Source: Yoonia sp. (GTDB lineage Bacteria > Pseudomonadota > Alphaproteobacteria > Rhodobacterales > Rhodobacteraceae). From it: a DNA stretch of 64,000 nucleotides. The position numbers were made by a program, and so were the translations under genes. This document shows, in pieces, positions 16,188 to 54,742 of the stretch (position 1 is its first letter; the number at the start of each line of letters is the position of its first letter). Under the pieces are notes generated by a model. The model saw only the letters and a program-made list of their open reading frames with translations, had not been told where the DNA came from and did no database searches. The stretch is from contig NZ_JANQTS010000009.1 of NCBI RefSeq assembly GCF_030731595.1, forward strand, positions 7 to 64,006. Direction: 5' to 3'.

Positions 16188-16638
16188 CGCGTCTATCCCC
16201 CATACTCGTCATAAACCAACAACACGCACTTAGAACAAATTTGTCTGTGCGTTACGTCACAGCAGAAAGTTTCAATAAGCGAAAAATTGCCACAATGTCG
16301 GCTAAAACTCAAGTGCAAAGGGGTATTTCAAACTTAATTGTGAACAAGCAAGGCAAATACCTGATACTTTTTCGAAATCGGAAACATGCAGCGGCACGGC
16401 ACCTTTTGCTGCGATGGGCAAGTTGTCCGGGTATTCCGGCGTTGACAGAGAATCATTTCGCGATCCGCGCCACAAAGCGACATGCCAGACGCTTCACCTG
16501 CCCAAGCTCAAAGTGTCCCGATAGCCTTGTGCAAGGCCCTGACCCGACATCTGGACGCGCCAGACACACGCGACCGATCAATTCAACCGGCCCTTTCCCT
16601 TGCAGCAGTTCGGTTTATGATGCATTCCCAAGCGCAGA

Positions 16639-51360: not shown

Positions 51361-51861
51361 CTATCGCGTCTCATCGCGCAGTGCTTTGTGCATCACAAAG
51401 GCATCGACATAGCCCTGTGTCGGGTGCGCGAAGGCCAGAGGGATTGTTCCCACCGTCGTGAACCCCAACCGATGCCAGAGCCGGACAGCCCCCGCATTGG
51501 AGGCCAGAACAAAGTTGAACTGCATCGCGAGGTAACCCAAGGCCTGCGCTTCGGCCTGACTATGCGCGCACATTTGTGCCGCGATCCCCCGCCCGCGCGC
51601 ATCGGGATCAACAATATAGCCGCAGTTGCAGATATGCGCCCCGCCGCCGGGTTGATTGGTCTTGATATAATAGGTCCCGACGATGCGACCCGCGGCCTCG
51701 GCTATATAGGTCGCCTTGGCCTGTCCCATCCAATAATCCCTTGCCTGCGCTGCGGTGATGTCGGGATCAACAGCATAAGTCTCGCCCGCCCGAAACACAT
51801 CGCGCAGCATGGGCCAGATAAGATCGAAATCTTCTGGCACAGCAGCGCGGATGGTGATCAA
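51361..51861 (-). CDS. GNAT family N-acetyltransferase
   Basis: [22 protein letters not shown] and [10 protein letters not shown] motifs; TTG start overlaps the mrp stop. Confidence 0.9.
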
Positions 51862-52931
51862 GCGATGCCACCGTCAATCAGGCGGCGCGCCAAGGCGCGG
51901 TAGGCATCGGCCATCGGCCCGTCACCTGCCGCAATCGGTGTACCTGCATCCCCCGCAAGTCGCGTAGCCAGATCAATCGGCAATGACCCAAGGAACGGCA
52001 CCCCGATCTTTTCAGCTTCGGCCGCAACGCCGCCATGACCAAATATATGCGATTCGGTCCCGCAAGTCGGGCAGACGAAGGTTGACATGTTCTCGATCAT
52101 CCCAAGCACAGGGGTCCGCAGCGAATTGAACATATCCAGCGCCTTGCGCGCATCAATCAAGGCCACGTCCTGCGGGGTACTGACCACAATCGCGCCCGTC
52201 AGTTCGGTTTTCTGGCACAGGGTCAACTGCACATCACCAGTGCCGGGGGGCAGATCGACGATCAAAACATCAAGTTCGCCCCATTGCACCTGCCCCAACA
52301 TCTGTTGCAACGCCCCCATCAGCATCGGGCCGCGCCAGACAACGGCCTTGCCCTCTTCCATCATCAGACCGATCGACATCATCGTGACACCGTGCGCCTG
52401 CAACGGGATGATGGTTTTGCCATCCGGACTGCCCGGGCGCTTGTTCACACCCATCATGCGGGGCTGCGAGGGGCCATAGATATCTGCGTCCAAAAGACCA
52501 ACGCGGCGACCTTCCCGTGCCAAAGCCACAGCAAGGTTGGATGAAACAGTCGATTTGCCAACGCCGCCTTTGCCCGACCCAATCGCCAGAATACGGTCAA
52601 CGCCAGAGACCTTGGCAGGTCCGGCCTGCGGTGTCGGATGGCGGCCAATCTTGAGCGAGGGTGGCTCTGCAGGCTTGGGTGCTGGGCCGTGGGCTGTCAA
52701 AACAACCGAAACCTTTTCAACTCCGGCCAATCCCTGCACCATTTGTTCCGCGGCGCGGCGGACACCCTCCATTTTGGAAGCTTCCTCTGGATTGGCTGCC
52801 TCGATAACGAAACGGACGGCCGCGCCTTCGATAGAAAGCGCGCGGATCATGTCACGCGACACCAGATCATCCCCACCCGGCAAAGTGAGTCGCGCCAAAG
52901 CGCTTAGAATTTCATCGCGGGTGACGGACAT
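51858..52931 (-). CDS. apbC: Mrp/NBP35 (ApbC) Fe-S cluster carrier ATPase
   Basis: [30 protein letters not shown] and [12 protein letters not shown] motifs. Confidence 0.93.
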
Positions 52932-53060
52932 GCTGAGACCTCGAGTTTTCTTTATGGCTAAATTTTCCCCCAACTTCTGGCACGTTTGGGCCAAATCGCA
53001 AGGGTTTCACACCGGATGCCCAAAATTGCGTCAGATTGATGACAGTAGGTCAGAAGTGCT

Positions 53061-53115
53061 TATGCAATTTCTGCATAGCAGCATTGTCTAAACGGCCATT
53101 GTGCAACTGCAGCAT
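53061..53115. promoter_or_regulatory. Two LysR-type T-N11-A boxes upstream of the DUF1127 gene
   Basis: TATGCA-ATTTC-TGCATA (53061-53077) and GTGC-N7-GCAT (53101-53115), the latter overlapping CATAAT. Confidence 0.45.
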
Positions 53116-53182
53116 AATCATACATCTTTGGCACAACGGAGCAACAAACAGCGCTCCTCTTAATTGGAATTGAGACAAGCAG

Positions 53183-53398
53183 ATGACTTATAACACAGCA
53201 ACAGGCTTTGCCGGTTTCTCACTTGGACAGCGGTTTGCCGCGCTCCGGGCTGATATGGCGGAGTACGCCGCGAAACGCAAAGTCTATAACACAACACTGG
53301 CCGAACTGGCCTCACTGACAGACCGTGATCTCGACGATCTGGGCATTGCGCGCGCTTCGATCAGCGCCATCGCCCGTGAAGCCGCTTACGGCAAGTAA
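53183..53398 (+). CDS. DUF1127 (YjiS-like / CcaF1-like) small protein
   Basis: 71 aa; ELASLTDRDLDDLGIAR..I..IA signature; directly upstream of a CCTCCTCCC hairpin array. Confidence 0.92.
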   Translation: MTYNTATGFAGFSLGQRFAALRADMAEYAAKRKVYNTTLAELASLTDRDLDDLGIARASISAIAREAAYGK

Positions 53399-53410
53399 TT
53401 GAAGAATTCG

Positions 53411-53716
53411 GATCTGCCGCCTCCTCCCTTAAGGCAGATCTGGACACAACCCAAGGCTTCACCTCCTCCCGAGGCTTTGGGTCAACATTAAGGTGGCGGC
53501 ATCCACCTCCTCCCGGATGCCGCCGCTTTAAGACACAAGTTTCGGAACCGCCCACCTCCTCCCGGGTGGAACCGATGATACCGCAGGCCGCGCTCACCTC
53601 CTCCCGAGCAACGTCAGCGAGGACGCGCCTTGCTTCTTCTCCTCCCGAGACGCAAGGAGGCGCTGATAAATAAAGACGGTCATGCCCACCTCCTCCCGGG
53701 CATGGCCGTTTTTTTA
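53411..53716 (+). ncRNA. ccsR: CcsR/cuckoo-type sRNA array: seven stem-loops with CCUCCUCCC loops
   Basis: Motif at 53420, 53462, 53506, 53555, 53597, 53638 (TCTCCTCCC variant) and 53689, each enclosed by its own inverted repeat; the last stem ends in a T-run. Confidence 0.9.
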
Positions 53717-53737: not shown

Positions 53738-54205
53738 CTAGGCGCGGCGTTCCTGGACCGTCAGGTAGATCACCAAAAGATCAATCGCTGTCAGCACGAT
53801 CAGCATCGCGCCGCCCACAGAGAACCACTCGAATATCTGGTAGACGACAAAAGCGCTCAACACGATGATCGCCGCATGATGCGCCCATCGTGCTCCGCCC
53901 AGCAATGCGGCCACGACCACAAGATGCAAAGTCCCGTGTGCCGCGAAGTAGACAGTATAAAAGCTCGTATCCGACGCAGGCAGCATCTGGGCCCATGTGA
54001 GGATATGCGAGGCTAGAAAATCACTCGGGTCTTCTGTGAGTTCATTTTGCACCAGCCATTGGGCGAACTGCGGCAGGTCTTGCGTGACGCCCAAAGAAAG
54101 CGCTGCCGCAATCATGACTTGCAACAGCCCCAGCAGCCCCTTTGCCGTAAGGGTTACAACAAAGAACTGGTGCTGGTTCAGCAAGATCGGACCGTTGGCG
54201 CTCAT
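53738..54205 (-). CDS. DUF2127 family membrane protein
   Basis: KG..G, LTEDPSDFLA, YF..HG, WA, F..YQ and D..VIYLT..E pattern; GAGAGG RBS. Confidence 0.75.
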   Translation of the reverse strand: MSANGPILLNQHQFFVVTLTAKGLLGLLQVMIAAALSLGVTQDLPQFAQWLVQNELTEDPSDFLASHILTWAQMLPASDTSFYTVYFAAHGTLHLVVVAALLGGARWAHHAAIIVLSAFVVYQIFEWFSVGGAMLIVLTAIDLLVIYLTVQERRA

Positions 54206-54289
54206 CTTGTGCCTCTCCTTGTCATCTCGCTCCATGTGCCATGAATGCGCGGAACTGTAAGCCTCAAAGTGACACCTGATCCGGTGGCC

Positions 54290-54742
54290 CTACGCACGGA
54301 CATCCTTGGACGATCCCATCACCATATAGCTGGTGATCGCGCGCACATGCGGCACAGTCCCCAATTTGTCGGTATGAAACGCCTTGTAGGCCGGCAAATC
54401 CGCCACCTCGACCCGCAGCATATACTCGAAAGCGCCTGCGACATTGTGGCATTCGGCGACCTCATCAGCGCGCTGCATCGCCTGTTCAAACGCCATTTGC
54501 GCCGCTTTGGTATGTTCGGCCAGCCCCACAGCCACATAAACCACAAAGGCCCGCCCCGTCTGCGCGGGATCAAGCCGCGCGCGGTAGCCTTTGATGACGC
54601 CTGCTTTTTCCAGCTCTTGCACACGGCGCAGGCAGGCAGAGGGCGACAAGCCGACGCGATCTGCCAATTCGATATTGCTGATACGCCCATCACGCGACAA
54701 CGCGCGCAATATCTTTTCGTTTATGGGGTCCTGTTTCATCAT
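54290..54742 (-). CDS. Lrp/AsnC family transcriptional regulator
   Basis: N-terminal HTH (DGRISNIELADRVGLSPSACLRRV) and RAM domain. Confidence 0.93.
   Translation of the reverse strand: MMKQDPINEKILRALSRDGRISNIELADRVGLSPSACLRRVQELEKAGVIKGYRARLDPAQTGRAFVVYVAVGLAEHTKAAQMAFEQAMQRADEVAECHNVAGAFEYMLRVEVADLPAYKAFHTDKLGTVPHVRAITSYMVMGSSKDVRA

Follow-up and report, generated by a model that had tools for sequence, protein, structure and literature searches.

The locus analysed here is, with high confidence on our part, a CIN1-type cuckoo/CcsR locus of a Yoonia/Loktanella-like member of the Rhodobacterales, and this confidence covers the identification taken together with the mechanism proposed below. 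It lies on the forward strand of the window, by which we mean the whole 64,000-nucleotide stretch of DNA that was analysed, and comprises a gene for a small CcaF1-like DUF1127 protein (53183–53398) followed by seven hairpins (53407–53713), the first of which begins 8 nt past the stop codon. The feature is real and was rightly identified by an earlier sequence-only reading; within a family already described it is ordinary, its apparently odd traits falling within published variation.

The sequence-only reading had described seven consecutive stem-loops, and all motif sites were found where it had placed them. The anti-Shine-Dalgarno (anti-SD) sequence CCUCCUCCC is present exactly in six of the seven loops and the sixth loop carries the variant UCUCCUCCC. 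The exact 9-mer CCTCCTCCC occurs at 53420, 53462, 53506, 53555, 53597, and 53689, and its counterpart TCTCCTCCC at 53638, giving motif spacings of 42, 44, 49, 42, 41, and 51 nt along the array. The stem pairs quoted earlier, GATCTGCC/GGCAGATC, GGCGGCATCC/GGATGCCGCC, and ACGGTCATGCCC/GGGCATGGCCGT, are also right. Folding of a 318-nt stretch containing the array resulted in a free energy of −140.7 kcal/mol compared with −100.5 ± 5.1 kcal/mol for dinucleotide shuffles (z = −7.9), with none of 100 shuffles folding as well. The hairpins come out in this minimum-free-energy fold and also when folded one by one.

Hairpin 1 (53407–53444) is formed by a 12-bp stem with the loop GCCUCCUCCCUUAA (−18.0 kcal/mol) and shows compensatory changes in 11 of its 12 pairs among 21 relatives. 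The loop ACCUCCUCCC is common to hairpins 2, 3, 4, 5, and 7. Hairpin 2 (53448–53483; −18.2 kcal/mol) shows covariation in five of six consensus pairs, and hairpin 3 (53492–53527; −25.2 kcal/mol) has a GC-rich stem of 13 bp, a loop conserved at 100%, and CUUUA immediately after it. The stem of hairpin 4 (53542–53575; −14.9 kcal/mol) is opened by a conserved AA/AA internal loop, and that of hairpin 5 (53582–53619; −9.8 kcal/mol) is weak and interrupted, with covariation in 7 of 11 pairs. Hairpin 6 (53625–53663) presents the variant loop and contains AAGGAGG in its 3′ arm; its outer 7 bp covary (five of the seven pairs). Hairpin 7 with its run of U residues spans 53672–53715, has a core stem at 53676–53687/53698–53709 within a stem of 12–16 bp, and folds with −25.4 kcal/mol; its loop is conserved at 100% and its stem at 89–97%. 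The seven T/U residues at 53709–53715 make it a terminator-like end of the transcript, in agreement with the earlier suggestion that the last stem doubles as a terminator. A scan for consensus terminators gave nothing at hairpin 7, because the 10-nt loop of this hairpin exceeds the 8-nt loop limit of the scan. Since the gap between the DUF1127 stop codon and hairpin 1 is too short to hold a promoter, and since seven U residues follow hairpin 7, the array is placed in the 3′ UTR of the DUF1127 gene. Gene and array would thus be co-transcribed, a conclusion which, beyond the lack of promoter space, is taken from the homologues.

The secondary structure is conserved across the genus. The locus is held by 21 of the 24 other same-genus genomes, whose matches share 70–90% DNA identity with it, and their orthologous arrays were collected together with those of four named relatives (Yoonia sp. 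F2084L, Loktanella sp. Alg231-35, and two uncultured Rhodobacteraceae). RNAalifold, run on 21 arrays from the genus and its close relatives, predicted all seven hairpins unguided, with compensatory changes in 37 of 76 consensus pairs (at least one sequence with both sides changed and pairing kept). In a separate count of 74 hairpin pairs, 95% of the cells were standard pairs, compared with 34–43% when the 3′ partner was slid by one or two columns; double changes were seen in 36 of the 74 pairs but in 8–13 after sliding, and all seven helices outdo their own slid versions. Loop conservation is 0.92–1.00 in hairpins 2–5 and 7, with lower values for most stems and linkers. A conserved loop on a stem that varies while staying paired is the pattern expected when the loop is the part that is read and the stem has only to form pairs. 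Outside the loops the modules resemble one another weakly, the best pairs being hairpins 3 and 7 (z 3.8) and then hairpins 1 and 4 (z 1.9). An internal duplication relating hairpins 1–3 to hairpins 4–7 was examined on the same grounds; the weak likeness outside the loops does not settle the origin of the array.

Family membership was assessed with Rfam covariance models, among them ar14 (RF02344), which represents the cuckoo family in its three-hairpin form (alpha-r14/NfeR1). The ar14 model matches 53403–53530 with 63.1 bits, above its gathering score of 58.8, and covers hairpins 1–3 end to end. With relaxed thresholds a second ar14 match is obtained at 53537–53713 (hairpins 4–7); unlike a regular ar14 member, this part scores 53.9 bits, below the gathering score, and hairpin 6 is accommodated as a 53-nt insertion. 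In its own genome ar14 matches at this locus alone. The ar7 model gives a weaker match on the same stretch of the array. The assignment of the locus to the cuckoo/CcsR family, for which covariance models had been proposed as a check, therefore stands with ar14; it does not extend to the CcsR1 model (RF02791), whose best match reaches 37.0 bits against a gathering score of 65.3. Adjacent loop-motif hairpins, a score above the gathering threshold, and a structure kept despite varying stems are all found together at the locus, and a DUF1127 orthologue (OG1) directly adjoins the array here, in 21 congeners, and in 29 other genera. These are the features of the cuckoo CIN1 loci as published, namely adjoining hairpins with CCUCCUCCC loops, variable stems, and a DUF1127 neighbor (Reinkensmeier & Giegerich 2015, PMC4615179), so that the earlier call of a cuckoo/CcsR-type array in the 3′ UTR of a CcaF1-like gene is borne out by both the ar14 score and the gene context.

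The same evidence bears on whether the hairpins could instead be repeated terminators or REP-like palindromes of no regulatory role, their C-rich loops being a compositional accident. Hairpins 3 and 7, being GC-rich and followed by U residues, do have the look of terminators. Against such an origin, the exact 9-mer is scarce rather than abundant, with 15 copies on both strands of the 3.27-Mb genome where base composition would predict about 50; the array accounts for six of the 15, and the 64-kb window holds no others. The reading is further contradicted by the invariant loops on covarying stems, by the match to an Rfam family above its gathering score, and by the link to one DUF1127 orthologue across 29 other genera, and we consider it scarcely credible. 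A lone exact CCTCCTCCC is found elsewhere in the genome, on contig C48 near position 16333 (+), between complementary GC-rich arms (CGCGCCCTG ... CAGGCGCG). This site could represent a solitary cuckoo-like hairpin or simply a terminator; read from the other strand, it presents a Shine-Dalgarno (SD) sequence 11 nt ahead of an ORF starting with TTG.

The product of the gene at 53183–53398, which ends with a TAA stop codon, is 71 amino acids long and matches Pfam DUF1127 (PF06568) with an E-value of 4.4e-9 and 36.4 bits, the curated cut-off being 23.3. The domain occupies residues 29–58 of 71, and the protein is thus of the CcaF1 type, small, with an N-terminal extension and a domain scoring above the Pfam cut-off. 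CcaF1 of R. sphaeroides likewise has 71 amino acids, with its domain at residues 23–62 (PMC8034643). Relatives of the window protein are present in 232 of 301 genomes of the family, its own genome counted in. This genome has four DUF1127 genes, and the array stands behind the one at 53183–53398 only. A search of the PDB with the DUF1127 protein returned no solved homologue; its single weak match, to CooJ (E 0.029), is probably meaningless. The locus is flanked upstream by a divergent gene for an Fe-S P-loop NTPase of the Mrp/ApbC type (51858–52994, minus strand) and downstream by convergent genes for a DUF2127 membrane protein (53738–54235, minus strand) and an Lrp/AsnC regulator (54290–54742, minus strand). 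These flanks differ from the benzoate-transporter flank reported for many CIN1 loci of the Rhodobacteraceae.

A close studied counterpart is ccaF1-CcsR1-4 of Rhodobacter (Cereibacter) sphaeroides, which likewise combines a 71-amino acid DUF1127 gene, an array of anti-SD loops in its 3′ UTR, and a terminator at the end (PMC8034643), although with eight hairpins instead of the seven found here. Upstream of the gene, a TTG/−10 block partly resembles the RpoHI/HII promoters. A candidate RpoH-type promoter can be placed at 53099–53127 on the plus strand, with TTG at 53099–53101 and ACATCT at 53122–53127, and the same-genus loci conserve, ahead of the DUF1127 ORF, the block ATTGTGCA-N-CAGCATnATC-aTACATsT. 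In R. sphaeroides the RpoHI/HII consensus is TTG for the −35 element and CCATGT for the −10 element (PMC8266604). Measured against this R. sphaeroides consensus, the −10 element agrees at four of six positions in the window and at five of six in some relatives. A scan for the sigma-70 consensus upstream of the DUF1127 ORF found none. By comparison with the R. sphaeroides locus, the transcript probably starts at a stress promoter of the RpoH type. About 25 nt upstream of the candidate −35 element lies a perfect palindrome, ATGCA-N5-TGCAT (53062–53076), which is conserved in nearly all same-genus loci (TTATGCAtTTtCTGCATAGCAGCATTG) and may be a binding site for a regulator of the ccaF1-like operon. 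Just downstream of the predicted start site a small hairpin of the 5′ UTR, GGAGC...GCUCC, is present at 53138–53157; at the equivalent place the relatives have different yet complementary arms (GCGG..CCGC, AUGA..UCAU), which suggests a conserved 5′ stem-loop.

In the mechanism that we propose, one RNA would carry both the DUF1127 gene and the seven-hairpin array of its 3′ UTR, with transcription running, probably from the stress (RpoH-type) promoter, to hairpin 7 and its U-run. By analogy to CcsR1-4 and to NfeR1 of S. meliloti, RNase E would cut this precursor in AU-rich linkers, with the DUF1127 protein modulating the process, and the products would be small RNAs of a few hairpins each. For R. 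sphaeroides it has been reported that RNase E cuts the precursor beside U residues in AU-rich linkers, with GUUUCC at the 5′ end of CcsR1, and that CcaF1 binds the CcsR precursor and modulates its maturation (PMC8034643). The linkers of the present array fall into short ones, of 3 nt (hairpins 1/2), 5 nt (hairpins 5/6), and 6 nt (hairpins 4/5), and AU-rich, conserved ones of 8–14 nt (53484–53491, 53528–53541, and 53664–53671). The longest, UUAAGACACAAGUU at 53528–53541 on the plus strand, is 71% AU and runs into GUUUCGG, which makes it a candidate for RNase E cleavage, by which the array would be divided into three and four hairpins.

Another possibility is that the array stays uncut and works in cis, or serves as a single long, multivalent RNA. 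It might, for instance, be a structured 3′ UTR that stabilizes or titrates the DUF1127 mRNA and protein, or a sponge of about 320 nt for SD-like sequences or 30S subunits. The uniform spacing and the several very short linkers would fit such a role, as would the binding of CcaF1 to its own precursor in R. sphaeroides (PMC8034643) and the conserved internal SD-like runs GAGGA and AAGGAGG, which are able to pair with the loops. Three linkers are nevertheless AU-rich, 8–14 nt long, and conserved, one of them leading into a sequence that resembles the mapped CcsR cleavage context, and all studied homologues give discrete trans-acting sRNAs (PMC8034643; bioRxiv 10.1101/2025.11.14.688489). We therefore regard an uncut array as very unlikely compared with processing into small RNAs.

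If the precursor is cut, the units may not be those of the CcsR RNAs. Unlike CcsR two-hairpin units with their longer linkers, the present array has uniform spacing and an odd count. The meeting of the longest linker with GUUUCGG, together with the boundary between the two ar14 matches (the second begins at 53537, inside this linker), makes a split into three plus four hairpins no less plausible than the 2+2+3 that was published from computation. The '223' split published for L. vestfoldensis thus disagrees with the 3+4 that Rfam suggests for the window array, both being computational assignments. The sequence-only reading had proposed processing units differing from the two-hairpin CcsR, and this is plausible; because the spacing is uniform (41–51 nt) and not alternating, the mature RNAs may differ from the R. 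sphaeroides paradigm.

Accessibility of the loops was evaluated with the partition function of the full array, in which the motifs of hairpins 1–4 and 7 are unpaired with a probability of 1.0. In this single-sequence ensemble hairpins 5 and 6 leave their motifs unpaired only about 40% of the time, and for the remaining 60% or so these motifs pair with nearby SD-like purine runs, namely GAGGA at 53618–53622, kept in 18 of 21 arrays, and AAGGAGG at 53654–53660 in the 3′ arm of hairpin 6. When hairpin 6 is folded in isolation, the variant U53638 lets UCUC (53638–53641) pair with GAGA (53647–53650), leaving a CUCCC pentaloop. Covariation across relatives backs the outer stems of both hairpin 5 and hairpin 6. 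It neither backs nor refutes the UCUC/GAGA register, because these columns are invariant among the species bearing the variant. A more specific reading of these data is that the array of this genus matures unlike the two-hairpin CcsR RNAs, either into ar14-like RNAs of three and four hairpins or into one long RNA, with hairpins 5 and 6 self-masked. The predicted masking would have the anti-SD motifs held by GAGGA, by AAGGAGG, and by the stem-extending U of loop 6, and if true, the motifs of hairpins 5 and 6 would be released only upon processing or upon binding of the DUF1127 protein. Taken as a whole we consider this reading unlikely.

The sequence-only reading had regarded three traits as unusual, the odd number of modules, the fully diverged stems on an invariant loop, and the one mutated loop with a possibly diverged target, and comparison with relatives and with published descriptions removes the novelty of each. 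The comparison of copy number it had suggested gives seven module positions in 20 of 20 complete arrays from the genus and the named relatives, spanning 338–357 nt, and seven is accordingly the norm of the genus. Counts of five or six from the motif scan go with a doubled spacing, which marks a module whose loop carries at least two changes. Elsewhere in the family, 29 other genera were compared, and behind the best DUF1127 orthologue of each stand 2–17 modules, with 16 odd and 13 even counts, some of which are lower bounds as a few contigs end early. Two styles of spacing occur in the family, one alternating between about 39 and 60–80 nt, as for the two-hairpin units of R. sphaeroides, and the other uniform at about 40–50 nt; the window array has the uniform style. 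The longest arrays linked to DUF1127 genes, at loci of other genera (L024, L032, and L027), have 17, 16, and 14 CCUCCUCCC hairpins, and many of their loops are extended to CCUCCUCCUCCC.

Odd totals in mixed clusters are also on record for cuckoo CIN1, including seven hairpins in Loktanella (Yoonia) vestfoldensis SKA53. Table 1 of PMC4615179 (2015) lists '223' for this strain, '24' for Sulfitobacter and Oceanicola batsensis, '2223' for Sagittula, and '22223' for Oceanicola granulosus, and some CIN1 clusters are described as beginning with two-hairpin RNAs and finishing with other variants (PMC4615179). Loktanella vestfoldensis is now Yoonia vestfoldensis, and Yoonia also names one of the closest named relatives of the window. 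A seven-hairpin CIN1 cluster of this lineage has thus been in print since 2015, as read from the '223' entry of Table 1. With seven modules throughout the genus, odd and even counts alike in the family, and 223, 2223, and 22223 already published, rarity of an odd count was rejected. The combination of variable stems and an invariant loop is the published definition of the cuckoo family (PMC4615179) and so is no peculiarity of this array.

Of the 21 aligned arrays, 15 share the U of loop 6 at one and the same position, indicating that it is inherited, and TCTCCTCCC occurs in arrays of 8 of the 29 other genera. A C-to-U change at the 5′ end of the motif keeps a G·U wobble with the same target G, so that the array need not have acquired a different target. 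Taking the U as private to this array, or as pointing to a new target, was rejected as the default explanation, as the variant is common to most of the genus, recurs elsewhere, and retains G·U pairing.

At the level of targets, the redundant anti-SD loops (CCUCCUCCC) would pair with many mRNAs, at G-rich ribosome-binding sites and elsewhere, with silencing as the usual outcome. The predicted mode of action resembles that of NfeR1 (Smr14C) of Sinorhizobium meliloti and of AbcR1/2, in which redundant anti-SD loop motifs address ribosome-binding sites. In contrast to the window array, NfeR1 is transcribed from a promoter of its own as one sRNA of three hairpins, and the AbcR RNAs belong to a different family. 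In S. meliloti the three CCUCCUCCC loops of NfeR1 serve as redundant seeds, at ribosome-binding sites and within coding regions, and its regulon comprises several hundred mRNAs, most of which have roles in nutrient uptake and metabolism, silencing being the main effect (bioRxiv 10.1101/2025.11.14.688489). A crude SD scan of the window's own genome yielded 20 ORFs whose SD is complementary to the loop over 8 nt or more. Ten of these ORFs were annotated in the present analysis, and five of the ten encode periplasmic solute-binding proteins (SBP_bac_1 twice, TctC, DctP, and NMT1-like), which recalls the nutrient-uptake-rich regulon of NfeR1 and AbcR1/2. The candidate list fits the NfeR1 picture, and as the scan is biased toward strongly translated genes with strong SD sequences, we treat it as a lead and not as evidence.

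What is gained is mainly annotation, with one more ccaF1-like gene and cuckoo/CcsR array delimited in a genome of the marine Roseobacter group. That hairpin number varies, that stems diverge, and that clusters can be mixed was already reported in 2015, and the locus opens no new question. The genus-level alignment gives covariation support for all seven hairpins, and the survey of the family, with its 2–17 modules, two spacing styles, and recurrent loop U, could guide the choice of species in which to map how the precursor is cut.
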